64,000 nt of DNA from a virus: IMG/VR virus record IMGVR_UViG_3300048837_000614, positions 21,920 to 85,919 of that record; one strand, 5' to 3'. The position numbers were made by a program, and so were the translations under genes. The notes beneath the pieces were generated by a model. That model had not been told where the DNA came from, ran no database searches, and saw only the letters and a program-made list of their open reading frames with translations. Numbering within the stretch: position 1 is the first letter of the stretch; each line of letters opens with the position of its first letter. Positions 1 through 64,000 of this stretch are shown one piece after another.

Positions 1-3000
1 GGAGATAGAATTACTAAGATTAACGAAAGCGATTATGGAGATAAAACATTCTATGCTAAATATAACGAAGAAAAATATCGTATAAGATGGTTAGCTGAAG
101 ATGAAACTATAATCAAAGAAGACTTTTTAACTAGAGGAACTTTCTTGACTGAACCTGAACCTGAAGGCATGGTTAAAGATAACGCTTGGATCAATGGTTT
201 ACTTTATAGATTTGAGTATGTTGGTTTTATCAATGAATATAACGAATTCTTTCAACCCGGTATTACAAAGGCACAAAGAAATACAAATCTAAAGGTTGTA
301 TTCAGTCAACCTATCCCAGTCGAAACAGACTTAGCTGTTCACTACAAAGTTAAAGAAGAGGGTGCTATTGTAACAAAGCAACTTTACATTAAAAAACAAG
401 TAGGAACTGAAGTAGATGTGGATTTAGATATTCTACAATATTTAAGTAATGATAACTTGAACACCTATGAAGATCTTTCATCAGTTCAACAATTTGTAAA
501 GAGTGTTTCGTTTATTGTAGATGGAACACCACTTGAAGAAGAATTAGTGAGTGGAATGACTTTCATAATGGATGAAGAAGAACCTTACCAACTTTCATGT
601 AATTATGATACTACTGCATGGGTTGTAACTTTCAGAAAGAAAACTTACGCATCCGGAGAGTATAGTTTAGGTGCTTCAGTAGGAACTCATAGTTTTGCAG
701 ACAATAGTACAAAATCGGTTATCGAAAATAAAGGTGCATCTTACTTAGATATACTTTATGAAGTTACATTAAATACAGGTGCAAAAGAATATCTACAGGG
801 TTTTAAAGTTCTCGGAGAAGAAGATGTAGAAACGGATATGCCAACAAACATTGGAAGTGATCTAACATTAGTTCCATATTATGGGCCAGAAGTAAACCAA
901 GCTTTTGTTAAAACTTTAACTTTCGGAAAAGAAGACGGTTCATTTGGAATGCCGATGATGGACAGCTTAACGAATAAACAAAAAATCACTCAATACTATA
1001 GAGTAGGAACAGAAGTAAGCCTATTAGCTATAAAAGAACTCACACAAACAAATCAATACAAATACATGGAGATTGATAAATTCTTTGCTGATTTATTAAA
1101 TGGCGTTCCAAGTAATGAGATAGTCTCAGATACATTGATCTTGAATAACAATAGAACGCTATATATTCAAACCGCTAATAAAAAGTTATATAGTGTAATT
1201 TATAAAAATTATTCAAGCCCAAGCAGTACTTATAACTTGGATGTCATAAATTATTACCCATTCCATTTTGAATCAGGTAATATTTCATTTAATACTCAAA
1301 CAAATCAACCCGAAGTAACAAGCTACCTAGGAAGTAGATATGTTCATAAAGGTTGGTCTACAACAAATGGCGGTTCGCTTAATGAATTAAATGTGACTCT
1401 ATTGGAGAATAGAGGAGCGGATTTAATTCTATATCCAATATTTGTAAGATTAGGAGATTTCTTAATTAATTTCACATTTAAAACAAATACAAATACACCG
1501 TTGCTTACAAACTACACATTAGATTCTACTTTGGAAAAGACTGTCACTTACGATAAACTTGGAACTAATCATACATTATACGAAACTTATTTAGCATTTA
1601 TAAACGAGTTAAACGCTAATAGTCCTTTGATAAGTGGGACAGCTATACAACCTCAACAAATAGGTTATAACTTCAATAGATATAGAGTTAATGGTGGCGT
1701 TTGGGAAACAACAATGCCTATCAGAGTAAACTTAGCTATGAATCAATCTGAAATTGAAGGTCAAGATAAAGAAATGACTATCGAAATAGAGTTGATAAGA
1801 AACACATCATACGCACACTTAGTCATAGGAGATTCTTCAAAACCAAACGACTCGTTAAATTTAACGGATATTAATTTCCACACAGGAACTGTTGCATATC
1901 AAAGAAATAAATTTATCAATAAAGGATTGACATTCAGCCAATTAATTTCAAACGGAGAGATACCAGCATTAAGCCCTTATGGTGGAGAAACTCTATACTA
2001 CTGTTATTGGGATCCTTCAGAACCTTATTCAATAAGTGATGTAATGTATAGTGCTAACATTGTTGGCGACATGGAAATATTTGTTAAAGATACAGTTGAA
2101 GGACTGCATCAATTTAGAATTATATATCAAGATTTAAATGGTGTTGGTGGTTTCACAACTATTAAAACAATGCACATTTATGCGAACCAACTTGTTCAAT
2201 ATGGTAGTGTTTGGTTATTTGATATAAATCTTTATAAACCGTCCGATCCAGGAATATACGGATATATATTCAAAGGCTACAGTTCACCAAGTTCTAACGG
2301 TGCAGTAGTCACAAGTTATGCAATAGGTACAGGTAATATCGAAGATATCTACTTAACAGCAGTGCATAGTGCGTTCGGACAGATAAATGTTAATTTCAAA
2401 GTTAAGGGAGAATCTGGGAATCTAATTACAGATTACGACTTAACAGGGGATCATGATTGGTCTAATATGGGAACTTATATGTTTTCAAAACAATATCAAT
2501 TCTATCAAAGATCAACGCATTACTTTTCCCCTACAACACTATTGAATGAATTTAAAGATAGTATAGAATATAACCAAAGAGCTCAAATGGGATATGATGT
2601 CGTAGGTTTTAGAGTAGATTATCCTGAAGGAGTGTTAGGAGAAGGTCATTCAAGTTACCAAATAGCATCCTTTGTAAGCCCTTATATCAACTTAACTAAT
2701 GTGTTAGATTCTGCAATCGATGGGAAGAATTGTGACATAACATTCACATTTATTTTAAGAAGAAAGAGTGGATATGTTCATGTCGAAGTTTTAAATGAAT
2801 CACAGCCAAGCTTAAACACAGGATCATTAGACAGCAGTAATTATCCATATAGAAAATTCTTTATGCCCTGGGGAGAAACTATTCTAGACGTTAGGAACGA
2901 CTTTAATGCCAACTATGAAGAAGGACAAAACCCAATATATGATTTAAGTATTTATGGAGTATTTAGTAATTACTATACATATAACACAGGTGGTGGATAT

Positions 3001-3078
3001 ACATTGGTTATTAATTCTTACCAAGTAAATTCGTCAATGCCACAAAATATTCAAATATTTGTAAGAGATGATATTTAA
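1..3078 (+). CDS. Tail fibre/receptor-binding-like structural protein with Listeria-Bacteroides (InlB B-repeat)-like motifs; 5'-truncated by the window
   Basis: Frame 1 is open from base 1 (GDRITKINESDYGDKTFYAKY...). Recurrent motifs GDKTFYAKY, HKGWSTT..DLILYPIF and GYIFKGY..DIYLTA; beta-rich N/T/Y composition; lies in the structural block. Confidence 0.55.
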   Translation, partial: GDRITKINESDYGDKTFYAKYNEEKYRIRWLAEDETIIKEDFLTRGTFLTEPEPEGMVKDNAWINGLLYRFEYVGFINEYNEFFQPGITKAQRNTNLKVVFSQPIPVETDLAVHYKVKEEGAIVTKQLYIKKQVGTEVDVDLDILQYLSNDNLNTYEDLSSVQQFVKSVSFIVDGTPLEEELVSGMTFIMDEEEPYQLSCNYDTTAWVVTFRKKTYASGEYSLGASVGTHSFADNSTKSVIENKGASYLDILYEVTLNTGAKEYLQGFKVLGEEDVETDMPTNIGSDLTLVPYYGPEVNQAFVKTLTFGKEDGSFGMPMMDSLTNKQKITQYYRVGTEVSLLAIKELTQTNQYKYMEIDKFFADLLNGVPSNEIVSDTLILNNNRTLYIQTANKKLYSVIYKNYSSPSSTYNLDVINYYPFHFESGNISFNTQTNQPEVTSYLGSRYVHKGWSTTNGGSLNELNVTLLENRGADLILYPIFVRLGDFLINFTFKTNTNTPLLTNYTLDSTLEKTVTYDKLGTNHTLYETYLAFINELNANSPLISGTAIQPQQIGYNFNRYRVNGGVWETTMPIRVNLAMNQSEIEGQDKEMTIEIELIRNTSYAHLVIGDSSKPNDSLNLTDINFHTGTVAYQRNKFINKGLTFSQLISNGEIPALSPYGGETLYYCYWDPSEPYSISDVMYSANIVGDMEIFVKDTVEGLHQFRIIYQDLNGVGGFTTIKTMHIYANQLVQYGSVWLFDINLYKPSDPGIYGYIFKGYSSPSSNGAVVTSYAIGTGNIEDIYLTAVHSAFGQINVNFKVKGESGNLITDYDLTGDHDWSNMGTYMFSKQYQFYQRSTHYFSPTTLLNEFKDSIEYNQRAQMGYDVVGFRVDYPEGVLGEGHSSYQIASFVSPYINLTNVLDSAIDGKNCDITFTFILRRKSGYVHVEVLNESQPSLNTGSLDSSNYPYRKFFMPWGETILDVRNDFNANYEEGQNPIYDLSIYGVFSNYYTYNTGGGYTLVINSYQVNSSMPQNIQIFVRDDI

Positions 3079-3091
3079 TTAGAGGTGGATT

Positions 3092-6000
3092 ATGCCAAAC
3101 AAAATGATTACAGGATATAAAGAAAAGCAAATTTATAGAAACGAACGTTTTACAAAAGGCGTAGTCTCAACGAATGACCCTTTGTTTGAAGGGTCTTTCA
3201 GACGTCTAATTAACTTTAAAGTATCAAATCAAAATGCTTCTATCGAAAACAGGGAACCTTTCTTAAGTGTTCCCTTATTCGATTTATCCAATAGAGAGAT
3301 AAAATTATCTAAAGATGCTTTTGTCTTCGCACTAAATAGTGACACAGAACATGCTTTTATTTTAGATCTATATCAAGAAAAAATTACAGTAGATAAATAT
3401 GACGCACATTTTTTAGAAAAAGATATCAATGACTCAAATGATTTCTTTGTAATAGATGGTGATACTATCGAAGTAAAAGGTCAAAGATATCGTTTGGCTT
3501 TCGTGGATGCACCTGAAACTGATGATTACTCTTTCGAAGCGAATGATAGTAATTTTGATAATCTCGGACAAGAAGCAAAAAGTATCACAAATCAATTCTT
3601 ACAGGATCCATTCTCAATAGTGCAATTCGATTTCCAATCTGAAAAGATTGATAAGTTCGGACGTAAACTTGTATTCATCATAAAAAAATTAGATGAACAG
3701 GAATATAAAATTCTTAACCTGGAATTATTGAAAGATGGCTATGCTCACTTTTATAACTTCCACAATTATGATAAGGTTTCAGTAAACTTATATGTCCCTG
3801 AAAAAGTGACTATAGAAGAAACTGAAATCAACTTATTCAATGAAACAAGAGTTGCTTATATATTGGGGCAAGATAAATCATATTCATGCTTTGGAACTAA
3901 GTACACAGAAACGGTTGCTGAAATTCTAGTCAACGCAGAGAACAGTTACTTTACCAAAGCTAAAGTGTATAAAATCAAAAAGGACACAGACCTCAAAGAG
4001 ATCCAATTAGAAGAAATCGTAGATGAAAAAAAGGTATTTCACAAACATCTTATCAAAAGAGTTATTAAAGAATTCGAAATCAGTGAGATTGAAGTTAAAA
4101 AAGATTTAGAGATTTTCAATGATGAAAGTTTGAAGTATTCTATGATTACTAGAGATTTCTCAATCATCAATGGTAAGTATAGAAATCAACATCTAAATAT
4201 GTATATTCAAATACACAATCAATTTGGAACCGAAATTTATAGAGGTTTATTAGAACTCAGCTATACTCCAGGAGTAATCGAAGATAACATTGAAGAGGGT
4301 TTTGATTTCATCACATATAAAAGACCTGAAGCTCATGTAGAAATTCAAGACGTAGTAAATACAAAGCCCAATATCTTGGACGATAGAAGTATTATACCTA
4401 TGACTTATAAAGGTGTTAAAGCAAACGTAAAAGGTTATTCAAACCCAAGTGTAAATACGGTACTACTAAATGTTAATCTAAATAGAAATTTAGAAAGACC
4501 AAATATGGTTAGTGATGAAGTTGTGACTAAGTACTTTAGAACGGATAGACCTATATTTGAAGATATAGAAAGATACAACTTAACGCCATTCTTTAAAGCA
4601 CCAAATATTAGATCAGAAAAAAATAAGTATATGTATCGTTGGGACTTTGTTAATCTTAAAGAAGTAGATTTTGGAAATGAAGATGAGATTAAAAATTTTA
4701 AACCATTCTTTAGAAGTGCTTGGACGGAATTAGTAGACTATCCAAATGAAACAAATAACATTTCTAAAAAGCCAGAAAGAATGAAAAGAATAGCAACTAC
4801 ACTAAAAAATATTAAAACAGCTGATGAATTTTATATGATTGAAAGTTTAGCGACTAAAAGAACAATCACCGCTGATGATTCAGAAGGTTTTAATATTGAT
4901 GAATTAAACGACAATCTGACAGCACCTAAAACTCTAAAAGAGATACAAGCCTTATTTAATAATTTTTTAGAAGAACATACATTATCTGAATTAAAAACAG
5001 AACTTACGAGAATGCATTACATAGTTGATATAGAGGTTGAAACATTAGTAACTATTGGTGATTATCATTTCAAAATAGTTAAGGTTAAAAATAAAACTAA
5101 ACTAAAAGAAGCCATAGAGTCTAATGAGAAAGAAGATGGGTTCTCATTCGAAGAAGATTATGGAAAAGAAGCTAAAGCTTTAAACTACTCAGAAAGACAA
5201 TTGATCTTCACTTCAGAAGAAAACAAAAATAAGAAGATTGCATTCTTATTCTCTGGAATTTCAGTAATATACGAAAATGGAACTAATCCTAAAAAAGTCG
5301 TTCACTATGCCGATGAAACAAGAGGAATTGTATTTGACTTAACGGAAGATAGATCGAGTGTTATACCCTATAACTTAAACATGGGTATACTTAAAAACAT
5401 GAATGTTCCAGGATTAGACTTTGACGATTTCTTCAAGAATGGTATTCAAGCAACATTTTATCTTATGACTTATAAGGATGAAGAATCACTAACCGAAGAA
5501 GATGTTTTCTATGATAATGTAGCCTACAAAAAATCCTCAGCAACATACTTCTTTAGAAAAGGAAATATCTTCAAATACGGAAAAGAAGACTTCGTTGATG
5601 ATAGATTAGATAGAGAGAGCTTCATGATTAGATATGGGAAATACGTTGCAGCTTACCAAGATAGAATTCTAACTTACGGAAACCCGATGTATAAGAATAC
5701 AGTATCTATGAGTGAAGAAGGTGCACCTTATTACTTCTCACTTTATAACACGTTTGAATTCGATCACGAAGTAGTTCATGTCCAATCATTCAAAACGATA
5801 ATGCTTGTATTTACAATTAACGACGTTTGGGTTATCTATCCATGGGAAGATAAAAACATAGAAACAGGCATAGTAACAATTAGTTATAGAATCAAAAAGA
5901 TTCTCTATAACATATCGACCGAAGTTAAGAATAAAGTTACTATTAAAAACATCACGAGATACATCACGTTACTCAGTAACAACGTACTATACCTAATTAA

Positions 6001-27627: not shown

Positions 27628-27692
27628 TTTTTTCTCTCTTTCCTTATACGACATATTTGTCTTACATAATATATATTTCATATATATTTATT

Positions 27693-27729
27693 AAAAGGGA
27701 AATAACTTGGTAGTTATTTTCCCTTTTTT
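27693..27729 (-). terminator. Terminator-like hairpin
   Basis: AAAAGGGAAATAAT-like arm AAAAGGGAAATAAC pairs with GTTATTTTCCCTTTT; A/T-runs on both sides. Confidence 0.65.
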
Positions 27730-52882: not shown

Positions 52883-53265
52883 ATCAGTTCCTCCAATTCT
52901 TTTTCTAAATCATCAACTTGTTCATCCATAGTTTTCTTTATACACAATTCTTTTTCTAATGTACTTATTTCTAATGCAATTTTCCATATTTGTGCTTCTG
53001 CAATCATTTTTTCTTTAGGTGTCAATGTACCATGTTTTGTCGTCCACCCCCATTCAAGCATAAATCTATATAACATGCTTTTCTTAATCAACCCCAATAA
53101 CTCCTCAACCTTTTTAGCACGTTTTTCTTTCTTTTCTTGTTCGGTGATGTAAATATGTAAGTCATCAATTTGTGATGGTGTAATGGCATCAGTTGGAACT
53201 AACTCATTTAGTAAGTTTCTTGCCTCTTCATGCGTAATTACTTTCACTTCTTCTTCATAGTTCAT
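52879..53265 (-). CDS. Hypothetical protein
   Basis: GGGGT RBS. Confidence 0.6.
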   Translation of the reverse strand: MNYEEEVKVITHEEARNLLNELVPTDAITPSQIDDLHIYITEQEKKEKRAKKVEELLGLIKKSMLYRFMLEWGWTTKHGTLTPKEKMIAEAQIWKIALEISTLEKELCIKKTMDEQVDDLEKELEELI

Positions 53266-53269
53266 ACTA

Positions 53270-53494
53270 TTATACCCCTATAATTTCACGATACTTAAAA
53301 CCCTTTGTAGGTTGATAAGTAACTTCATAACTCTTTCTAGTCTTATGCGAATAGACTCTGACAATTGGATTTGTAATCTTTCCAGCAATGAAATCATTTT
53401 TTAAATAAGACCACTTTGTGTAGAACGATGCTGTCTTATCTTGGTGGTGTGCAACTACTCTTTCATCATTTTTAATTAGATCTTCTCGTTTCAT
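53270..53494 (-). CDS. Hypothetical protein
   Basis: AAGGAG RBS; first gene after the non-coding locus. Confidence 0.65.
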   Translation of the reverse strand: MKREDLIKNDERVVAHHQDKTASFYTKWSYLKNDFIAGKITNPIVRVYSHKTRKSYEVTYQPTKGFKYREIIGV

Positions 53495-53525
53495 TTTTAT
53501 TCTCCTTTATTTTATATTATATATT

Positions 53526-53558
53526 AAAAAAAAATCACACTTTATTCAAATGTGATTT
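53526..53558 (-). terminator. Rho-independent terminator ending the non-coding locus
   Basis: Minus strand AAATCACA-TTTGAATAAAG-TGTGATTT followed by a T-run. Confidence 0.7.
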
Positions 53559-54004
53559 CTAATAAGTCAAGTTGGTGCCTACGTTCGATAAAGTCTACTT
53601 GATAGGCACGTCTTGTTCGGTCACCTATGATGCCTTCACGGGGGGGATGTAATAGCATCACTAAATGGTGGTATTGAGTGGAATAGGTAATCACCACTCG
53701 ATGGGAAGATAATTTTCCTTTGATCCCTTTAAACTTTTGTACTAACCTCTTTGATTAAAGTTTAATCTCAAAGAGTTTTCTTCGGCTTCCTATGTTTATC
53801 GATTACTTGGACCTACTATGTGTGGACACGATGCGACACACTCCTGGGCAATCTCCTGGTTAATAACTTAGATCACATACACAGAATTTTATCGTGATTA
53901 CCGAATACTTATGATATGGTTGTGGCCGTTGAACATATCTACTTCCAAAGAAGCTAGTGCTGTTCCATTTACCTACAGCTATTCTATAGGCACCAGAGAT
54001 TTAG

Positions 54005-54039
54005 AAAAAAGCCCAAGAGATAAGAGAATCTTAGGCTTT
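54005..54039 (-). terminator. Terminator-like hairpin inside the non-coding locus
   Basis: Minus strand AAAGCCTAAGA...TCTTGGGC followed by T6. Confidence 0.6.
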
Positions 54040-54790
54040 ATTAAGGATATAGCTTACGATTTTGAGAACGGAAACCGCAAGCTAATGATAGGCTGTGCTC
54101 TTTTGAATTGACACATTGAACTTAGTCACCCTTTATGTTTTGATCGAAGGGAAAAGCACCTATGCATTGAATCTGATAAAAAGAGATTCTCGGAAAGGCA
54201 AGAATAGGCGGTTAAAGCTGAACGATAACTTTAACAAACCTTTAGTCCTATCGTTTTTTAATTTGTTTCGGACGTTATTAGAATTCCTATTCTTTTAAGT
54301 AATTTACTACCTTTCCGACAATGTCTTTTTATTGATGATAAAAGCAAGCTGTTAGTTGACCTGAAACTCATTTAACTTCTTAAGGCTGCAACAGAGAAGC
54401 ACTCGCTAATTCATCACATTAAGTCAAGAGAATACTTCGGTCTGCCTAACGACTTATTATTCTAACCTTGAGCTGGCACTTCAAGGGAAGCCGGTTTCAT
54501 ATTCTCATTGACTTAATCTGATGAATCAAAATACTTATCACATCATCAACGTTTGAGGAGAACTCTGTTCCTCGTAAGATGTTTACTTCTATCTTAACAG
54601 AATAGTGTGCTGACATTTACACCAGTCTTACCTTTGATGATCTGATAAATATTCTTATACGACAAATCTGGCACGCCAAAAATGTCTTAGAAGATATAAG
54701 GTATATATATTTATATATATATACCGTTATCTCTTATTAAAAATAAAAAAATACTTACAGTATTTTATTTATTTTTCTAGTATACAACCT

Positions 54791-54831
54791 CTTTTGAAGG
54801 CTTCTTTTGCTGTCGCAAGAAGCCTCAAAAG
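54791..54831. other. Strong hairpin upstream of the ncRNA locus
   Basis: CTTTTGA-AGGCTTCTT...AAGAAGCC-TCAAAAG. Confidence 0.5.
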
Positions 54832-54921
54832 TTAGTCGTTTTCAAAAGATTTTACGGTTCAATTTGTTTTTTACGCACATGACGTATACAGTTTTTTAAT
54901 ATTCAATTTTTAGTGTGAAAC

Positions 54922-54949
54922 AAAAAAGAAAAGGGTGTTACGCCTTTTC
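54922..54949 (-). terminator. Terminator overlapping the stop of the 77-aa ORF
   Basis: Minus strand GAAAAGGCG-TAA-CACCCTTTTC-TTTTTT. Confidence 0.6.
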
Positions 54950-55171
54950 AACTTCAAGGATGGTTGTGTATGTTCCACGCGTTTCAATGAGGATCACTGA
55001 ACCTGGTTTGACGGATGCTGACATCTCATCTTTCGCAACGATAACACTCTCATTGTTAGCATTTACTAACGTAAGGTATTCGTTGTCATTGATTGAACGT
55101 GGGACAACTCTCTTCACTGTGAATGTGAAAACTTTTCCCATTGCGGGATTTGCACTGACTGCTTGTGCCAT
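54938..55171 (-). CDS. Small beta-rich protein, possible OB/S1-like nucleic-acid-binding fold
   Basis: AAGGAG RBS, own leader hairpin and terminator; FTFTVKRV, YLTLV, SVIV, VKPGSVILIE strand pattern. Confidence 0.6.
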   Translation of the reverse strand: MAQAVSANPAMGKVFTFTVKRVVPRSINDNEYLTLVNANNESVIVAKDEMSASVKPGSVILIETRGTYTTILEVEKA

Positions 55172-55217
55172 GATATATCTCCTTCTAGTGATGATACATG
55201 ATTTTTTCTTTCATCAC

Positions 55218-55258
55218 TTACAATGCACGGCGACACGCGAACTTTGCGTGGTGCGTGC
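55218..55258 (-). promoter_or_regulatory. GC-rich hairpin element, copy 2 (candidate phage RNAP promoter)
   Basis: Plus strand TTACAAT-GCACG-G-CGACACGCGA...TTGCGTGGTG-CGTGC. Confidence 0.5.
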
Positions 55259-55288
55259 GGGCGGGACGTGGACTTCATTTTTTTTGTA

Positions 55289-55354
55289 AACGCTCTCACA
55301 ATGGGGGACGCGTGGTGGGGGAGGGCTAGCACACATAATATATAACGCTCTCAC
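55289..55354. repeat. 11-bp direct repeat AACGCTCTCAC (55289-55299, 55344-55354)
   Basis: Exact repeat in an intergenic region. Confidence 0.7.
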
Positions 55355-55471
55355 CTCATAGAAACAAAAACAAGCAACACAAAGGGCGTGAACATTCACT
55401 ACACACCAAGAAAGAAGAAAAAAGAATGAAATGAAAAAGAAAAAGGGGGTCGGGTATGGGTTGTTGGGGTT

Positions 55472-55497
55472 AAAGGGGAGCCAGAAAAGAACTCCCC
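55472..55497 (-). terminator. Hairpin terminator after the RNAP gene
   Basis: Minus strand GGGGAGTT-CTTTTCT-GGCTCCCC-TTT. Confidence 0.5.
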
Positions 55498-55520
55498 GAA
55501 TAAACTCCTAACAGATTTTA

Positions 55521-58500
55521 TTACTTAATGATATAGAACTTCGATACTGCGTCAAACTCTTTCATATCTTCTTCAGTGAATGAAAGTATTTGCTTAAATG
55601 TGTTACCGTTTGGATTGATAACATCGATGAGATTATTTACAGCACTCTTTGGATCTGATGTATTGAACCAACCAGCATTTGAATAGTCGAACTTGAGAGC
55701 TGTGTAGTTCATCTTTTCTTCAGCAAAACGAGATAGATCCTTTTTAGCATATAAGAACGCTTGATAGTCATAAGGCATCTTTTCAGCGTTGAGCTTAGTG
55801 TCAGTGCTTCCTTTGAACTTATAACCTTGGATCGTTTCACCGTTGATGTTGAATAGATGTTTCTCGATGATTTGAGATTTGATACCAAATTCTCTTGTGA
55901 TAGCGAATGTTCTGTATGTTGGATAGAATCCCCATTCGATGAATGCAGCAACTGCTTCAGACATACGATACACGAGTAGAACTGTCTTAACAACTTCTTG
56001 TAGGTTATCGGACCATTTTTGGATGTCGATGGTAGGTTGAACAAGTTTGTAGTTCATTTCGTCTGCCATGAGTCTAAGTCTATCTTTGGTTGCTTGATCT
56101 GTGATGTTAAATCTATTCATGAAGTCTTCGATAAAGAATGTTGCTTTCATCGTAATCGTTTTGGCTACACCAATAAGTTGTTTAGAGATTCTTGTTGTCA
56201 TTAAGTTTGATGAAGCTTTGATGAGTACTTCGCGTTTTGTTTGAACAGTCTTTGAGAGTGTGAGTAGTTCTTGAGCGTATGACTTGTTCTTCTTAACTTC
56301 ACCTATCCATAGAATGAGAGAGTCTAAGTCTGTGTATGGATATTTGTTAGGTAATGTGTGTAGATCAGTTGTATCAAAGATGTTTTGAGGTTTACCTAAT
56401 AAGATGTCTCTTGCGTTGAACTCGAAGCCGTATGATGTGATGTTTCTTTGTTCGTAGCCAAATAGAGTGTGTAGTTCTTTCTTGAATCTGTATGGGAAGA
56501 ATAAGAATATAACTTGGTCTCCATCAAAGTCTCCACCTTGACGTTGCCAAATGATTGGATTAACTTCAGAGTAACCGTGCTTAGCGTATTCGCTTGCTTT
56601 GTGTACGGTAACCATTGTGAAGATCGTATTAGCATCATCGACTGATGGATTACGTAATTGTAGAGCAGGTGGCAATAGTACTGGAACATTGTTTTTATAA
56701 GCACCAAAAGCTTTATCAATGTCATAGTTTCTATCAATACGCTTGATATTAACTAAGAAGGCAGTAAATTCTAACTCTGTGAGATAGATTCTAGCTTGAC
56801 CTGGTTCTAAGCTGACGTTGGCTGTAACTGTTGATGTGAACCCTGTAACTTCTTTTTGGAAGCGTTGTGTAATCTTTCCATACTTGCCATAGAGTTTACC
56901 TTCGGCTGTTGATTCTAACTTGTTAAGATCCTTGTTGATTTTATCTTCGTTACCTAATAGATGTTCTACAATTCGATAAGCACCCATGAGTCTTGCACGT
57001 GAGAACCACTCTAAACCTAACTTGTAAGATTTGAATTCTGTTTTACTATCTTGTTCAGTAGAATCATCGATGTCAGTATCTTCTAAATCATCGTTCTTGT
57101 ATGATGAGTCGATATCTCTAACTAGGAATGATTGCATGAGGACCACAGGATGTTTGCCTAATGATTCTTCGCCATTGAATATTTCTACTAAGTCCATGAG
57201 TTCTTCTGACTGTAGAGGTTTGTTATAGAAGTCTCTAACTTCTTGTGTTGTATTACCATTGAAAAATTTCTTGGCATTGTATAAGCCTTCGAAGAGAACA
57301 CCAAAGTTCTTTCTACTTGCTACATTTATCAATGATGCAACGTTGATTGGATATTTAATACCATTAACTACACAGTATAGATCATCCATTGTTACACGTG
57401 AAACACCTTTATCAAATCCTTGGAAAGCAATCTTAACACCTTCAAATAGATTTAACTTGTCAGCATAATGTTTGTGAATGAGTCTTTGCCCATCGTAAGT
57501 TGATAAGCCATTAGCGTCTACATAATCTATCATTGCATATAACATGTTGTAAGATGGAATGTACTTAACTAACTTAGAAGTGATTGTCAAAGGTTTGTCT
57601 GGTTTAACTGTTTCGAATGCGTGACCGATGATATAAGCTGAACCTGCATTTCTAAATGATTGATGATTGTGCATGTTGAATGGATTGATTTCGATCAATG
57701 ATTTCTTCTCTTCAAGGTATGCGACTGCAAAGTCTGCTTTGTTGTTCATATAACCTGGGTCGAACAGATCTAATCTACTATTATTAAGTGGGAAGTTACG
57801 ATGTTTGTCGTATCCTTTACCACCTAAGTTGTTAAGAATTTCAGCACCGTTAAACTTACCTGGATCAAGATATTCTTTGAAGTAGAACTTGTGATGTTCA
57901 ACGATAGTCTCAAATGGTGATGATTGTGATTCTACATTACCAATGATAATGAATGGTGCAAAGTAATAGATATTAGCCATGAGTCTTTCTTTTACTTCTT
58001 CGTATTCTCTACCAAGCATATGTACTTCAGTTAATATTTGTTCATGAGTAGGCATAATCTTACGCTTAGCGAACATGAGTCCGTTCAATGCTGCTTGAAG
58101 TGAACGTCTAAGGATCTCTTTGTTATCTTGTGATATCTTGTAAGCTTTAGTGAATGTTAATGTACCTTCAATGATTGAACGAACAAGTCCACGTAACGCA
58201 TTAGTTGATTTGCCATCTGCATAGTCCTCATAGATTTTATTCATGATAAATTTGTTATGACCTAATGTGTAAACACCTTTAATCATTGTAGGAACATAGA
58301 CGATGAATTCAGCATCTCCACGTTGACCCTTGAGTGTAATCTTAATAGCTTGTAATACATTGCCATAAGTGTTGGTAAACTTTCTACCTAACGATACACT
58401 GATACCTGCTTTGCTATCTACTAATCCATAAATAATTTGTGATAAGCTCTTTTGGTTCTTTGCGAACTCTTCAAGTTTCTTGTTGACAAATGGGAATGGT

Positions 58501-58961
58501 GATTCATCTACAGTAATCTCTTTTAAATCTGTATAGAAGTTCTTTTGATTAACGATATCATCTATCATGACATCTGTTACATCTCTAACACCATCGCTAA
58601 TGTATCTGAAGAAGCGTAGCAATTCAATGAACTTATCTCTTGTGAAATTAGTTCTGTCTAATCTGATTAACATATCCTTCATCTTGAATAGATCGAAGAA
58701 CCCTGAACCGATTGCAAAAGCACCACGATAATTCTTTTCTAACTTGTCACAGTAATACTTTGGTGATTCTAAGAATAGTTGAATACCATGTTCTTTAAGT
58801 ACTAACATGATTGCATAAATATCATCGAGTGTTACTTTAGGCATTGATGCAATGGTCTTTAAAGCTAATTCTAATGGTGTTCTGTAATCTACAATACTAA
58901 GTGATGTACGATCTACATCTTTGTTGTAATAACGTGCTAACAAAATGTCTGTTGTTCTCAT
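55521..58961 (-). CDS. Single-chain two-barrel DNA-dependent RNA polymerase (non-virion type), 1146 aa
   Basis: Beta-like VPTMIKGVYTLG, INPFNMHNHQSFR, TYDGQRLIH, GVKIAFQGFDKGV, INVASRKNFGVLFE; beta'-like LYGKYGKI, LRNPS, EVNP..WQRQGGDFDGDQ (DFDGD at 56517-56531); AGGAG RBS. Confidence 0.88.
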   Translation of the reverse strand: MRTTDILLARYYNKDVDRTSLSIVDYRTPLELALKTIASMPKVTLDDIYAIMLVLKEHGIQLFLESPKYYCDKLEKNYRGAFAIGSGFFDLFKMKDMLIRLDRTNFTRDKFIELLRFFRYISDGVRDVTDVMIDDIVNQKNFYTDLKEITVDESPFPFVNKKLEEFAKNQKSLSQIIYGLVDSKAGISVSLGRKFTNTYGNVLQAIKITLKGQRGDAEFIVYVPTMIKGVYTLGHNKFIMNKIYEDYADGKSTNALRGLVRSIIEGTLTFTKAYKISQDNKEILRRSLQAALNGLMFAKRKIMPTHEQILTEVHMLGREYEEVKERLMANIYYFAPFIIIGNVESQSSPFETIVEHHKFYFKEYLDPGKFNGAEILNNLGGKGYDKHRNFPLNNSRLDLFDPGYMNNKADFAVAYLEEKKSLIEINPFNMHNHQSFRNAGSAYIIGHAFETVKPDKPLTITSKLVKYIPSYNMLYAMIDYVDANGLSTYDGQRLIHKHYADKLNLFEGVKIAFQGFDKGVSRVTMDDLYCVVNGIKYPINVASLINVASRKNFGVLFEGLYNAKKFFNGNTTQEVRDFYNKPLQSEELMDLVEIFNGEESLGKHPVVLMQSFLVRDIDSSYKNDDLEDTDIDDSTEQDSKTEFKSYKLGLEWFSRARLMGAYRIVEHLLGNEDKINKDLNKLESTAEGKLYGKYGKITQRFQKEVTGFTSTVTANVSLEPGQARIYLTELEFTAFLVNIKRIDRNYDIDKAFGAYKNNVPVLLPPALQLRNPSVDDANTIFTMVTVHKASEYAKHGYSEVNPIIWQRQGGDFDGDQVIFLFFPYRFKKELHTLFGYEQRNITSYGFEFNARDILLGKPQNIFDTTDLHTLPNKYPYTDLDSLILWIGEVKKNKSYAQELLTLSKTVQTKREVLIKASSNLMTTRISKQLIGVAKTITMKATFFIEDFMNRFNITDQATKDRLRLMADEMNYKLVQPTIDIQKWSDNLQEVVKTVLLVYRMSEAVAAFIEWGFYPTYRTFAITREFGIKSQIIEKHLFNINGETIQGYKFKGSTDTKLNAEKMPYDYQAFLYAKKDLSRFAEEKMNYTALKFDYSNAGWFNTSDPKSAVNNLIDVINPNGNTFKQILSFTEEDMKEFDAVSKFYIIK

Positions 58962-58980
58962 TTTATTTCTCCTTTTTCTT

Positions 58981-59439
58981 TTACTCGACTATATTGGAGT
59001 CGATTTCTAAATATAAATCTTGTTTTAATACTAATTGCATAAACATTTGTAGTTCTACAACTGAAACTGTTTTGATAGTTCTTTCTCTTAAGAAATCGTC
59101 ATAAGAATAAATTCTATAAGTTATATTCCATACACGTTGTTCTTTTGTAACTTTGAATTGAACATATCTTGTTTCATTGAGATAATCAAACTTAACCGAT
59201 AGAGTAAATGATTTGCAATTACCTTCGACATTGAACTTAATGTCTTTAGTTGTTAAAGATAGAACTCTAGCAGCTTCACCAAGGTGAGCAGTTAGCATAT
59301 CCTTAGTAGATTGTACTTCTAATGATAGATCTCTCATGTATAATTCTAGGTCTGACATATTTTTATCCTCCTTTCTTACAGTATTTAACACGTTTAAATT
59401 TTGTTGTGTGTTCATAACACACCTCCATAAGGACTGCAT
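58981..59439 (-). CDS. Hypothetical protein co-transcribed with the RNAP gene
   Basis: Three in-frame ATGs (59439, 59415, 59358), each preceded by GGAGG. Confidence 0.65.
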   Translation of the reverse strand: MQSLWRCVMNTQQNLNVLNTVRKEDKNMSDLELYMRDLSLEVQSTKDMLTAHLGEAARVLSLTTKDIKFNVEGNCKSFTLSVKFDYLNETRYVQFKVTKEQRVWNITYRIYSYDDFLRERTIKTVSVVELQMFMQLVLKQDLYLEIDSNIVE

Positions 59440-59662
59440 ATTTGTTTATGCCTCCATCCTTTCACCAATACTCGATCATGTTGTGGTCCAATAAGACTCA
59501 TATAACATGGGGGTGGTTTCAAAATTGACCCCCCGGCTTTTTACCCCTATATATATAAATATATATTAGCCCACCCCCCCTACTCTAAAATCTATACAAT
59601 GTAAACAAAGTAAAAAAAAGAAACAATAAAATCTCCCTCTCTACTACCCTTCACTTCCTCTC

Positions 59663-60167: not shown

Positions 60168-60674
60168 ATGGGTATTTTAAATAAGGATCTTTTTACAGAG
60201 GACGAGTTAAATAGTTCGAAGACACGGTTTAATTTACTCATTTATTACTTTAATAAGGTCGCTGAAGAGTATCCGGATAAAGTCGATCAAATGACGTATA
60301 TTGAATTTCATAAGTATTCAAAGGAACAACTCAAGGTTGAAGAGTGGATTGAGTTCTTTTCGGATTATCGGGTAAGTATGTTATTGGATAAGCTGATGCT
60401 CATTAACATGCGTTCGAATATTAATAGACTGATTAACTCAGAAGATAAGAGCGTGGCAGGAAGTCAAAAGTTAAATGCGGCTCTCAATTTTTTAGGGAAG
60501 TATTTTGAAGACGCAATGAATAGAGATTCGGTTAAGTATATTTACACGTCGGTTCCATTAACACCTGCAGAGGAAAAATCGAGAGACGCTAGAACGTTAC
60601 TCATTAAACCAAAGGTCAACCCACATAACCCTGCGGTACCTGGAACGTCTACGGGAAAAGCAGTTAATGGCTAA
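60168..60674 (+). CDS. Probable terminase small subunit
   Basis: Helical 168-aa ORF directly upstream of and overlapping TerL (positional inference). Confidence 0.5.
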   Translation: MGILNKDLFTEDELNSSKTRFNLLIYYFNKVAEEYPDKVDQMTYIEFHKYSKEQLKVEEWIEFFSDYRVSMLLDKLMLINMRSNINRLINSEDKSVAGSQKLNAALNFLGKYFEDAMNRDSVKYIYTSVPLTPAEEKSRDARTLLIKPKVNPHNPAVPGTSTGKAVNG

Positions 60675-62361
60675 GTTTACAAAGTGTCCTCGGTGCGGTG
60701 CTTCCTTAAGACCTACGAAAGCATTGTCCGGTGGAAACTCGATCTTTTGGAAAGAGTGTTCCAATTCGTTTTGTGGAACGATGGTGGACACGTTTGAACC
60801 GTATGGTATGCAATACAACTTTTTGAAAGACCCACATCCGATTAAAGGTGTGTTCGGTGGTTATGGATCTGGTAAGTCGAGAGGTGTTATTAAAGACGTT
60901 GAAAAACACGGTGCAATTACACCGGGTGGACATATTGCGATTATTGGTTTTACGTATAGAGTTATTAACCGTAACTTCAAAAAAGACTTCGATGAAGACT
61001 TTCCTGTAGCTTTGGTTAGACAATCAAGCGGTGAGAAAACACCTGGCTTTAACGCTAAGGATATGGTGTATACACTTAAGAACGGTTGCAAGATAGAACT
61101 TATTACAGCTGATAATGTCATTAAATTAAGAGGTCTAAACGCAACAAAGATTGTTTTACTAGAAGCAAGTAATATTACGTATGAAATCTTTGAGGCACTT
61201 AAATCAAGACTTAGAAATCAAGCTGCATCGGTCCCAAAGTTAAACGATAAAGGACAACAAGAGTTTGAGTTAAACATTCAAACAGGTGAGATGGTACCTT
61301 TAACGGAAGCTGAATGGCATACCATGACACTTGAATCAAACCCTGAAGGGAATTGGATCCAAACAGACTTCTTATTAAAGGCTGACCGTATTCAATTCTA
61401 TGGAAACTCATATAATAAGTATCAATATTTAGTCGATCAGATCAATAAAGATTATTCACTACATATTTCAGCAACGGATGCCAATCCATATCTTCCAAAG
61501 AACTACTTGGAGATTAACACGAGAGGTAAACCTGAACACGAAATCAAACGATTCTATTATGGGTCTTTCTTATTCGTTGCGAATATGGTGCATCCAAAGA
61601 TTCACCAGGCATTGATAGATCCATACCCAATCAACTTAAATGACCCAGACATCTTTGTTATCATTGGTTACGACTACGGTCTATATGATCCTTCCGTATT
61701 TGAGTTTGGTGTTGTAAACTTTAAACGGCACACTGTAACATTCTTTGACGAGATAGAAGTTATTGATATGTCGGTTAAACAAATAGCTGAAGCTTTTAGA
61801 AAAAAACTATCTGTGATTCCAGATGGAAAACTCTTGTTCATTCCAAAGATGGATGCGAAGAGCTATTCAAAAAGAGGTGGAGATAAAGTTTCTTTAGGCT
61901 CTATGTTTGAAGACGCAGGTCTTATCTTTGACCCTGTGCAAGAAGCACCAAAGGAAAGAGTTATTAAGACGAACTCGTTAATTGATAACGGACAACTCTT
62001 TATCTTTAGAACACTTAAGCTCGCTGAAGAACTTAGAACAAGAAGACGTAAGGTTAATTCCAAGGGTGAAGCAACAGATGAACTCGTGGATAAACATAAC
62101 CATAGAGGCGATGCTATGGAGTTTGCTTTAATCAAACTTCCTATTAACTTAGAGAAAATGACCTTAGCTGATTATCTTCGCCCAGGAGAAAGAGTTATTG
62201 CTGATTTAAAGCGTAAAAAAGATAAACCTATTTTAGACGATAAACAAAAATTAATACAATCGATGAATCCTCTTAACTTCACAAAGGAAAAAGATTACGA
62301 AGAACATGACTATAACGAAGAAGAATATGATACAATTATAAGTAAACTTTCTGGAATTTAA
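60667..62361 (+). CDS. terL: Terminase large subunit with N-terminal Cys4 zinc ribbon
   Basis: Walker A GGYGSGKS, KLRG, ESNP coupling motif, DANPYLP, nuclease IGYDYG..DP, HNHRGDAMEF. Confidence 0.92.
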   Translation: MAKFTKCPRCGASLRPTKALSGGNSIFWKECSNSFCGTMVDTFEPYGMQYNFLKDPHPIKGVFGGYGSGKSRGVIKDVEKHGAITPGGHIAIIGFTYRVINRNFKKDFDEDFPVALVRQSSGEKTPGFNAKDMVYTLKNGCKIELITADNVIKLRGLNATKIVLLEASNITYEIFEALKSRLRNQAASVPKLNDKGQQEFELNIQTGEMVPLTEAEWHTMTLESNPEGNWIQTDFLLKADRIQFYGNSYNKYQYLVDQINKDYSLHISATDANPYLPKNYLEINTRGKPEHEIKRFYYGSFLFVANMVHPKIHQALIDPYPINLNDPDIFVIIGYDYGLYDPSVFEFGVVNFKRHTVTFFDEIEVIDMSVKQIAEAFRKKLSVIPDGKLLFIPKMDAKSYSKRGGDKVSLGSMFEDAGLIFDPVQEAPKERVIKTNSLIDNGQLFIFRTLKLAEELRTRRRKVNSKGEATDELVDKHNHRGDAMEFALIKLPINLEKMTLADYLRPGERVIADLKRKKDKPILDDKQKLIQSMNPLNFTKEKDYEEHDYNEEEYDTIISKLSGI

Positions 62362-62380
62362 TGTATAATGAAAATATAAA
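62362..62380 (+). promoter_or_regulatory. Promoter-like element upstream of the portal gene
   Basis: TATAATGAAAATATAAA, 16/17 identical to 10815-10831. Confidence 0.5.
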
Positions 62381-62392
62381 TGAGGTGTTGAT

Positions 62393-64000
62393 ATGGCGAA
62401 GAAAAAAGAAACCGAAAAAATAGAGGTTGAAAAAAAGGTAGAAGAAACAAAAAACGTTGTACCTGAAACAAACATTAAGGACATCGTTTCGATGTACCAA
62501 TCGTACAAAGCAGCAAAGGCACCAACCGTGCAAAGATGGAATCGTATCAAAGCTTTCTTTGATGGCGAGTTCTGGGAGAAGTTCAAGGAAAAGGTTAAAG
62601 AGTACACACTTATTCCTGATACGAACTACGTTGAATATGTAACTACAGCCTATATCAACTCTATTTATTCAGGTGTTTACATTCCAGAAGTCATTGCGAC
62701 AGACTTACAAATGCAAGAACTAGCTCAACAACTTTCCGCTTATATTCATGCTGAATTCATCCGTAAAGGTATCAAGTCAGAAATGACGGGGTGGGGTGAA
62801 AATGTTATGCTATATAACATGCAACCGGTCAAGACTTTTTTGAACAAAAGAGAAAAAGACGCTGATTGGGAAACGATTAACCCATTCGGAATCTTCTTAG
62901 ATCCTTCAGTTTCTGACTTTAGAAAAGGTGAAGCGGTGTTCATCGTTAAAGATACGAACATCTACACACTCCTTAAGGACCCAAGATTTAATGCAAAGAT
63001 TAAAGACTATCTATTAACTCATGACGAAAACGGAACAGAGTTAGAAGCCGTCAATATCTTCGATCAGGAGCCTGACATGGAAAGATTTACAACTACAGGT
63101 AACAAGACTGTTTCAATTCTTGAATACTATATTAGAACAAAAGAAGGTATCAACAACGGCTTCATTATGAATGAGAGATTACTTCTTCACGAGAAGAAAG
63201 GTATCATTCCTGATGATTTCCCTATCGATATCTTATACCATAGAAAACCAAATGGTAACCCATATGGTAAACCACTGATTTATAAGATCCTTAACTCATA
63301 CATCACACTTAATCTATTAGATAGTATGGATGCAACTCAACCATACCTTGCACAAAATAGACCGAAGTTCTTCGACTTAAAGAGCAGAATCAACCCGAGA
63401 GCGTTTATCGATTACGGTAACACTCCTGGTTCTACATTCCCACTCTTTGGAGAACCTACAAAAGCTGTGCATTACCAAGATATTCAATTCGTTCCAGACT
63501 CTACCAATATCAAGATCAGACTTGAGAACGGTATCTATAACGTAACAGGTGTCGACATGGCATATCGTGGTAGACAAACAAACTCGATTACGACAACCGG
63601 TGGCATTGAACAGCAACAAGCCAGAGTTATTATGCTTACAGATAACGGTCCAATCGTAGCTCTCGAGACATTCATAGAATCTTTAGCTAAAAGAAGATTG
63701 ATGTTTGTTAAAGAATACCTAGATGAAATCGAAGTACCGAAAAATAACTTCATCAAAGAAATGGTTAAGGTTAATCTTAAGGACGTAGATCTCAATAAGA
63801 TGTCGTTCATTCTAGAATCTAAACCATATCTTCCAATGACTAAGAAGACGTTGTTTGAAACACTTAAACAATTATATGAAATGCAAGGTCAGTATCAATT
63901 CCAAATTAAACTTATTCAAGAAGAAGATTTACTTGATGAACTTCCAATCGATCCAATCAGACGTTCTAAACTTCTACAAAGAATTGCAAGTGAGAAACAA
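62393..64000 (+). CDS. Portal protein (podovirus-type), 3'-truncated by the window; absent from the ORF track
   Basis: GAGGTG RBS; open frame to the window end (MAKKKETEK...RWNRIKAFFDGEFW...TNYVE...INPFGIFLDPSVSDF...IYNVTGVD); directly after TerL. Confidence 0.8.
   Translation, partial: MAKKKETEKIEVEKKVEETKNVVPETNIKDIVSMYQSYKAAKAPTVQRWNRIKAFFDGEFWEKFKEKVKEYTLIPDTNYVEYVTTAYINSIYSGVYIPEVIATDLQMQELAQQLSAYIHAEFIRKGIKSEMTGWGENVMLYNMQPVKTFLNKREKDADWETINPFGIFLDPSVSDFRKGEAVFIVKDTNIYTLLKDPRFNAKIKDYLLTHDENGTELEAVNIFDQEPDMERFTTTGNKTVSILEYYIRTKEGINNGFIMNERLLLHEKKGIIPDDFPIDILYHRKPNGNPYGKPLIYKILNSYITLNLLDSMDATQPYLAQNRPKFFDLKSRINPRAFIDYGNTPGSTFPLFGEPTKAVHYQDIQFVPDSTNIKIRLENGIYNVTGVDMAYRGRQTNSITTTGGIEQQQARVIMLTDNGPIVALETFIESLAKRRLMFVKEYLDEIEVPKNNFIKEMVKVNLKDVDLNKMSFILESKPYLPMTKKTLFETLKQLYEMQGQYQFQIKLIQEEDLLDELPIDPIRRSKLLQRIASEKQ

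Follow-up and report, generated by a model that had tools for sequence, protein, structure and literature searches.

We analyse here a 64-kb stretch of phage DNA (the window; bases 21920-85919 of the 85.9-kb IMG/VR virus record IMGVR_UViG_3300048837_000614, and the frame for all coordinates below unless stated otherwise) and focus on a locus without genes at positions 53526-54690. Our leading, still tentative, reading is that this locus constitutes an untranslated early minus-strand transcription unit, placed at the head of the long leftward block of genes in a phage with putatively two RNA polymerases of its own. The broader claim that the minus strand yields an untranslated transcript, be it a leader or a stand-alone RNA, appears probable, since transcription signals, a strand bias, the stability of the 5' half, the compactness of the genome and a coding-like degree of conservation all point in this direction. 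The leftward block spans 59439 to 25819 and begins with the polymerase cassette (55521-59439), which comprises the genes for a protein of 152 amino acids (aa) and a protein of 1146 aa. The adjoining 2 kb from 55520 to 53495 carry only one gene, of 77 aa, and the locus occupies the lower 1.17 kb of this interval. It is the largest gene-free stretch in an otherwise compact genome.

The candidate unit and its flanks can be divided into the following elements, given in minus-strand order; z-scores compare the computed folding energy with that of shuffled sequences.

54749-54830, minus strand: putative upstream insulator, a hairpin of 14-15 bp (54793-54830) followed by an A/U-only hairpin that ends in a U run.
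54700-54725, minus strand: TA-palindrome promoter-like element, a (TA)11 tract.
54654-54693, minus strand: 5' leader stem, UAAGACA...UGUCGUAUAAG, enclosing a small hairpin.
54528-54655, minus strand: module A, closed by a 22-pair helix that has a G.G mismatch and topped by three hairpins (z -4.4 on minus, -3.3 on plus).
54408-54527, minus strand: module B, a 27-pair closing helix with an AUCAGAU/AUGUGAU core and a G.G mismatch (z -8.7 on minus, -5.9 on plus).
54339-54407, minus strand: linker, a weak hairpin at chance level (z +0.3).
54176-54332, minus strand: module C, a 22-pair helix, interrupted by G.G and C.C mismatches, around nested 9-pair helices (z -5.4 on minus, -4.6 on plus).
54050-54167, minus strand: module D, a 9-pair helix and a 13-pair hairpin with two G.U pairs (z -3.8 on minus, -0.6 on plus).
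54005-54041, minus strand: terminator T1, an 11-pair stem (-12.4 kcal/mol) followed by U6 (z -4.0).
53571-53995, minus strand: 3' domain, closed by a 9-bp long-range stem and the best conserved part in relatives.
53526-53560, minus strand: terminator T2, a stem of 11-12 pairs (-9.9 kcal/mol) followed by U9 (z -5.7).
53494-53510, minus strand: ribosome site and ATG of a 74-aa gene, the first gene of the downstream block.

Transcription signals are found at both ends of the locus. An initial reading made from the letters of the window, termed here the sequence-only reading, had pointed to a promoter-like motif at the 5' end, and this motif is real and recurs elsewhere in the genome. The palindrome together with the leader stem occurs twice in 82 kb; the second copy (27643-27696, minus strand) follows a terminator-like hairpin and directly precedes the ribosome site and ATG of a minus-strand gene. 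The palindrome itself is found as an exact 19-mer at 59548-59566, in the gap between divergent genes that precedes the polymerase cassette, and in a looser form at 27680-27696. Because the motif recurs ahead of a gene start at 27643-27696 and the palindrome at 59548-59566, we regard the element at 54700-54725 as a putative promoter. The AT-rich motif could represent the promoter class of a virion enzyme, in analogy to phage P23-45, which, according to the accessible text of a preprint, combines a virion polymerase recognizing AT-rich promoters with a second polymerase recognizing GC-rich ones (bioRxiv 10.1101/2022.12.01.518664). Upstream of the motif, the hairpin at 54793-54830 is conserved in the metagenomic contig L002, a relative with 62% polymerase identity, with one double change from U-A to C-G in the stem, and the region 54690-54900 as a whole folds strongly on either strand (z -7.8 on minus, -7.2 on plus).

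At the other end, the terminators predicted at ~54005 and ~53526 are both canonical on the minus strand; a terminator consensus scan missed the two, one for its loop length and one for its GC content. The initial suggestion of either one RNA or two is a fair account of the locus, with lengths of ~1.17 kb for the one and of ~0.69 and ~0.48 kb for the two. The end of T2 lies 16 nucleotides (nt) from the ribosome site of the next gene, and no sigma-70-like site was found between T2 and the start of the 74-aa gene.

The claim of dense base pairing over ~1.2 kb holds for the 5' part of ~0.69 kb and fails for the 3' domain, which folds at chance level. As a mark of structured RNA we asked for a folding energy beyond that of dinucleotide shuffles on one strand. 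The minus strand of 54005-54690 lies far below its shuffles, with -200.6 kcal/mol against -146.5 +/- 5.4 (20 shuffles, z -10.0) or against -148.3 +/- 7.4 (60 shuffles, best shuffle -168.2, z -7.1). Taken singly, modules A to D, T1 and T2 were each matched by none of 100 shuffles, and sliding 150-nt windows understate the modules, whose helices span 120 nt. The 3' domain together with T2 (53526-54010) reaches z -2.9. Individual stems that had been picked out by eye are present: 54530-54549/54634-54653 comprises 18 Watson-Crick pairs, one A.C opposition that becomes G.U on the minus strand and one C.C that becomes G.G; 54409-54427/54508-54526 forms 18 of 19 pairs; and the stems 54190-54198/54310-54318, 54200-54208/54286-54294 and 53573-53581/53987-53995 form all of their nine pairs.

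The minus strand is also the folding strand, as proposed, according to the energy gap, the G.U pairs and the U-runs of the terminators. For 54005-54690, which is balanced in base composition, the difference between minus and plus strand amounts to -25.7 kcal/mol, compared to -5.1 +/- 6.3 in shuffles and reached by none of the 60. Ten helices of at least 8 pairs, three of which extend to 22-27 pairs, contain 127 Watson-Crick and 11 G.U pairs. Five one-by-one mismatches interrupt them, namely three G.G, one A.G and one C.C, and the C.A opposition that would wobble on the plus strand is absent. Counted more loosely, with helix ends included, G.U outnumbers C.A by 14 to 3. In module D the two G.U pairs correspond to A.C mismatches on the plus strand (54056/54078 and 54059/54075), and the U-tracts of T1 and T2 both lie on the minus strand. 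This asymmetry argues against a cruciform in double-stranded DNA and is compatible with single-stranded DNA of the minus strand.

The helices share a recurring core. In modules A and B, AUCAGAU lies opposite AUGUGAU with a central G.G common to both, module C harbours the same AGA/UGU step with its G.G, and a related AUCAC/GUGAU core is found in T2 and in one hairpin of the 3' domain. All three G.G mismatches among the five one-by-one mismatches in helices of at least 8 pairs stand in the AGA/UGU context, and G.G accounts for four of six over all helices of the minus-strand fold. Across the genome, three of the six minus-strand copies of AUGUGAU and three of the eleven copies of AUCAGAU fall into the locus. 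The core could reflect protein-binding sites, the duplication of a terminator-like hairpin or an alternative pairing with T2. The heptamers lie at 54171-54646, 53534-53556 and 53872-53878, and AUGUGAU is perfectly complementary to the 5' arm of T2.

As the sequence-only reading had stated, no credible open reading frame (ORF) exists in 53526-54690, where none is longer than 66 aa. Nor was a credible frame opened across the locus when TAG was read as Q, TGA as W or TAA as Q (four genetic codes in all). A protein hidden behind a recoded stop codon or in small ORFs is thus highly improbable. Its best candidate is a 196-aa minus-strand frame (53491-54081), which appears once TAA is taken as sense; this frame needs nine recoded TAA codons, yet the adjacent genes terminate in TAA, and the span carries indels of 1-2 nt in relatives (at least 12 between 53707 and 53981 among the differences listed). 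The longest frames under TAG=Q and TGA=W reach 118 and 111 aa, respectively, and lie on the plus strand.

Relatives of the locus occur in metagenomes. Parts of 53400-55000 are found in 20 runs, which belong to 16 studies of wastewater, manure, sludge, compost and other sources, with shares of at most 0.34. Four runs were compared at 80% likeness, two from wastewater (one of them run X8, which is labelled RNA-Seq), one from manure and one further wastewater run labelled RNA-Seq. All four contain short contigs of relatives (80-99% identity) over the locus and the polymerase gene; contig identity is ~92-99% over the locus and similar over the polymerase gene, and the 3' domain is covered in each of the four. 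Between these contigs and the window 346 differences were counted, 40 of which were listed. None of the listed runs is registered as an RNA sample. Run X8, labelled as RNA-Seq cDNA and rated as probably DNA, was not used as evidence of expression; its contigs cover 53724-53965, 54034-54268 and 54738-54985, and the lack of a contig over the polymerase gene bins 55582-56500 is not counted as a finding.

Whole modules come and go among these relatives. In a 284-nt manure contig (depth 2), 16 other letters stand between 53995 and 54408, and a single letter between 54525 and 54653. This relative therefore retains only the leader, module B and the 3' domain, without A, the linker, C, D or T1; its breakpoints coincide with module borders. 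T1 is present in the contigs from runs X1 and X4 that span it and absent from one X3 contig. The segment from T2 to the ribosome site (53495-53564) shows a single mismatch in 70 nt in an X4 contig that carries a different downstream gene. Small early genes are swapped between relatives at a sharp boundary, 53494/53495. The contigs of two runs diverge exactly there, from the start codon leftward, and keep T2 and the ribosome site.

According to the reading we favour, transcription would start just downstream of the TA-palindrome promoter, at ~54700. The RNA would fold module by module, from A to D, to form helices of 22-27 pairs, as far as thermodynamics indicate, and most polymerases would stop at T1 (~54005) or T2 (~53526), as the canonical form of the two terminators suggests, to release untranslated RNAs of ~0.69 or ~1.17 kb. 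Polymerases that pass T2 would transcribe the 74-aa gene and the genes behind it, for which no promoter of their own is visible. The terminators may meter or time the downstream block, either through a polymerase that ignores terminators or through antitermination set by the leader, and the long near-perfect helices, which have the length of an RNase III stalk, may act as processing or stabilising elements. The least explained step is the role of the conserved 3' domain.

We rank this leader version first because T2 borders on the first gene and no promoter is visible in between, because the junction from T2 to the ribosome site is the best-kept piece, because T1 is dispensable in one relative, and because the same promoter motif serves an mRNA. 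A further ground is the precedent of phage SPbeta, whose late operon depends on the single-chain polymerase YonO and, as far as the accessible text of the source describes it, starts upstream of an unannotated non-coding RNA (PMC5467207). In both cases a unit tied to a single-chain two-barrel polymerase would open with a non-coding RNA. SPbeta is likened here by description only, and the 1146-aa protein differs from YonO in that it has no detectable sequence match to solved polymerases.

Among other systems, the locus would work most like the control region after gene 1 of phage T7 and like early leaders that bear terminators. The intergenic region between T7 gene 1 and gene 1.1 holds phage promoters, the RNase III site R1.1 and the primary origin within a few hundred bases at most. 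Like this region, the locus is untranslated, directly follows a phage RNA polymerase gene, heads the next gene block and combines promoters, a stalk of double-stranded RNA and an AT-rich tract. It differs in its size (1.2 kb, or 2 kb including the leader of the 77-aa gene), in its ten helices of at least 8 pairs and its two intrinsic terminators, and in that the polymerase is putatively of the two-barrel rather than the T7 kind. The put sites of phage HK022 are two short stem-loops that act on the host polymerase, and the nut sites of lambda likewise form a leader for processive antitermination. Here, too, promoter-proximal stem-loops are followed by terminators ahead of genes to be expressed, whereas the modules measure 120-170 nt each and vary between relatives.

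Several points weigh against the leader reading. A length of 1.2 kb and ten long helices far exceed the needs of any leader or attenuator known to us. Taken alone, the 3' domain (53562-54000) has a z of -1.5 and is equalled by 8 of 100 shuffles. Of its 16 listed substitutions, 11 fall on positions that the predicted fold leaves unpaired, two keep a pair via G.U and three break a pair, the latter with no visible compensation. The reading presumes that the phage polymerases respond to intrinsic terminators, and the 74-aa gene could still have a promoter of its own, as the promoter type of the host may differ from sigma-70. The minimum of the cumulative GC skew at the locus suits an origin equally well. 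Finally, the unit is known here from DNA sequence and computed folds alone.

The size and the ornate helices would be better explained by a stand-alone, trans-acting large RNA of ~0.7-1.2 kb, the founder of a new family, which is released at T1 or T2, is stable and, early in infection, serves as a scaffold for proteins or as a decoy. We consider this possible but rather unlikely. The dedicated promoter motif with two strong terminators and a structure extreme for its size are in keeping with it, as are the repeated AGA/UGU G.G mismatches and the concentration of the AUGUGAU and AUCAGAU heptamers in the locus. The G.G helix might be a binding site, with the 77-aa protein or the polymerase as partner. 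Modules gained and lost between relatives are reminiscent of accessory or arms-race loci. Yet the most structured modules (A, C and D) are each dispensable in at least one relative, the conserved part folds no better than chance, T2 abuts the ribosome site of the next gene in the manner of an attenuator, and the link to the 77-aa protein, the fold model of which is poor, is one of position. A stand-alone RNA thus lacks positive evidence of its own. Slightly more doubtful still is its most elaborate form, in which a modular RNA family of 0.7-1.2 kb would be made from a phage promoter at the onset of infection by the phage's own two-barrel polymerase, its G.G helices would be repeated protein-binding sites, and the RNA would act as scaffold or decoy, either when the phage takes over the host or when one of its two polymerases hands over to the other.

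The precedent for phage RNAs of such a size is set by GOLLD and ROOL, two large phage-associated RNAs, which the accessible text of their description portrays as phage- or prophage-associated, hundreds of nt long, heavily folded, non-coding and of unknown function (PMC12286853), and the locus resembles them in these respects. It differs in that it has no match to their Rfam models, consists of tandem long-stem modules rather than a single ornate fold, and lies between a polymerase cassette and early genes in a window that is devoid of tRNA genes. More generally, the proposal that the locus may be a new RNA was supported in that no known family matches: a search of the 64 kb with GOLLD, ROOL, OLE, HEARO, raiA and all other 4227 families of Rfam gave no match at the gathering score. 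At E<=10, the region 53200-55600 returned four noise matches of 15.5-18.8 bits (Dictyostelium class I RNA, U7, a CRISPR repeat and a plant microRNA). This blank is meaningful because the same search detects a divergent group I intron elsewhere in the genome (E 9e-07). Covariance models and ARAGORN found no group I or II intron, RNase P, 6S RNA, phage pRNA, tRNA or tmRNA at the locus, and ARAGORN counted zero tRNA and tmRNA genes in the entire window.

A distant-mode blastn search with 53400-54900 against 50,697 GenBank phages yielded no match, nor did tblastn of the 1146-aa protein against GenBank phages, and in IMG/VR no relative was found via the polymerase, the terminase or the 77-aa protein. 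No published description of the locus or its clade was found in the literature. A survey of candidate phage RNAs reports, in its accessible text, only elements of 29-151 nt, each from at least three IMG/VR regions (PMC10690425); its supplementary tables could in principle list a piece of the locus.

Several other candidates were discarded. A miniature palindromic mobile element was ruled out, as no further copies of any module occur in the genome; a CRISPR-repeat mimic, as the locus has no match to a repeat family; a ToxI-like antitoxin, as tandem direct repeats are absent; a retron, as no reverse transcriptase was found nearby; and tRNA-like cargo, as ARAGORN was blank. Three IMG/VR contigs that match a 19-nt core of the 3' domain were attributed to chance, the matches lying inside GC-rich coding DNA.

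A function at the level of DNA, as replication origin and/or as the physical ends of the genome, is unlikely in our estimate, and several observations nevertheless suit it. The primary origin of T7 sits just after the polymerase gene, and the locus directly follows the polymerase cassette. Over the 86-kb record, the cumulative GC skew has its minimum at 54082-55081, and the plus-strand skew of the cassette is ~0 to +0.12 despite its minus-strand gene. The (TA)11 palindrome (54700-54725), situated in a region of 29-32% GC (54450-54900), would serve as the unwinding element, so that an AT-rich element and a skew switch, two of the marks by which an origin was sought, coincide at the locus. The hairpins would form in single-stranded DNA, where G.T pairs arise as well, and the strand asymmetry is hence compatible with this explanation. 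However, iteron-like arrays are absent, and the repeats present are direct repeats in two copies each (10-32 nt, 69-100% identity), besides (TA)n and short A/T-rich units. The palindrome occurs at two further sites, each ahead of a transcription unit; the two canonical terminators are signals of transcription, as is the leader stem, which an mRNA shares; the skew for the most part tracks gene orientation; and the assembly join lies elsewhere (60607-64000).

The modular turnover also raises the question whether the locus is a functionless, fast-evolving spacer, in which duplications of a terminator-like hairpin and palindromic insertions are tolerated between promoter and first gene. The presence or absence of entire modules with breakpoints at their borders would fit, as would the core AUCA-N-AU/(A/G)UGUGAU common to modules A and B, one hairpin of the 3' domain and T2, and the exact swap of adjacent small genes at 53494/53495. 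We deem such a spacer quite improbable, since a blastn-short search with 53495-54900 found no second copy of any module in the 86-kb record, and hence no active repeat family, the conservation is about equal to that of coding DNA, and the genome is otherwise very compact. Moreover, the bias of wobble pairs and of G.G over C.C implies selection on the fold of one strand.

Phages with two-barrel RNA polymerases of their own are little understood. If the leader reading is correct, the locus shows that such phages meter their early block by host-type terminators; a stand-alone RNA would extend the very short list of large structured RNAs exemplified by GOLLD and ROOL. In either case, the promoter motif, the modules and the two terminators form a well-delimited, testable unit, for which metagenomes supply natural deletion variants.

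The neighbouring 1146-aa protein has no sequence match in Pfam, PHROG or the PDB. Its eight relatives (43-88% identity) all retain D811-F-D-G-D815 and K510...K518-G (K-x7-K-G), invariant in 9 of 9 sequences, which we take to be the motifs of the two double-psi barrels (beta' and beta, respectively) of a single-chain polymerase. It is plausible that the protein is a two-barrel RNA polymerase. The 77-aa protein, a candidate OB-like protein in the sequence-only reading, was modelled with low confidence as five strands (predicted local distance difference test, pLDDT, 54). A ribonucleoprotein that links the locus to the 77-aa protein or to the polymerase, as the sequence-only reading had envisaged, may exist, to judge from the neighbourhood alone.

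A metagenome search for relatives of this region yielded two contigs, L002 and L003, which end at ~54763, ~60 nt before the promoter, and 160 nt after the 77-aa gene, respectively; a further contig search added two polymerase fragments that lack the DNA downstream. The 77-aa gene has a leader of 349 nt (55172-55520, minus strand) with 45-47% GC in a genome of 35% GC; this leader contains two hairpins, one a terminator and one GC-rich, as well as a long C/U-rich tract. Together, the 77-aa gene and its leader share 74% DNA identity with L002, whereas the polymerase shares only 62% protein identity. This leader may represent a second regulatory RNA or a hairpin promoter. A short ACUGAAUAGUAU-like motif follows the terminator of the 77-aa gene in the window (54880-54915), in L002 (~2720-2760) and in L003 (2680-2839). 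Common to the window, L002 and the 43%-identity relative L003, the ACUGAAUAGUAU-like motif is a possible element of a promoter.

L002 carries an extra 159-aa ORF (1647-2126 of that contig) in the interval from the polymerase gene to the leader of the 77-aa gene, an ORF that the phage in the window lacks, and because of this difference the interval is a putative insertion hot spot. The polymerase cassette also stands out by its plus-strand GC skew of ~-0.06 to +0.12, compared to -0.08 to -0.34 in other leftward genes. The odd skew could stem from head-on replication or from recent acquisition.

The genome as a whole is tightly packed and includes a rightward structural block with a 4949-aa ORF. 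Its terminase is 28% identical to that of the nearest GenBank phage, a Paenibacillus podophage; judged by these comparisons, the phage is distant from cultured phages and its clade has no cultured member. The final 3,138 bases of the record are an exact repeat of bases 1055-4192 (window 60863-64000, 100%). Because the record ends overlap exactly, the genome size is put at ~82 kb; the assembly is self-closing, and the genome is probably complete rather than 75% complete. The copy of the terminase gene at the start of the record (genome bases 1-4192) contains an insert of ~800 nt that is lacking from the copy in the window (60607-64000). This insert encodes a 181-aa ORF with NUMOD4 and HNH_3 domains and gives two sub-threshold matches to group I introns (34.7 bits, E 9e-07). 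It looks like a mobile intron that is polymorphic within the population.

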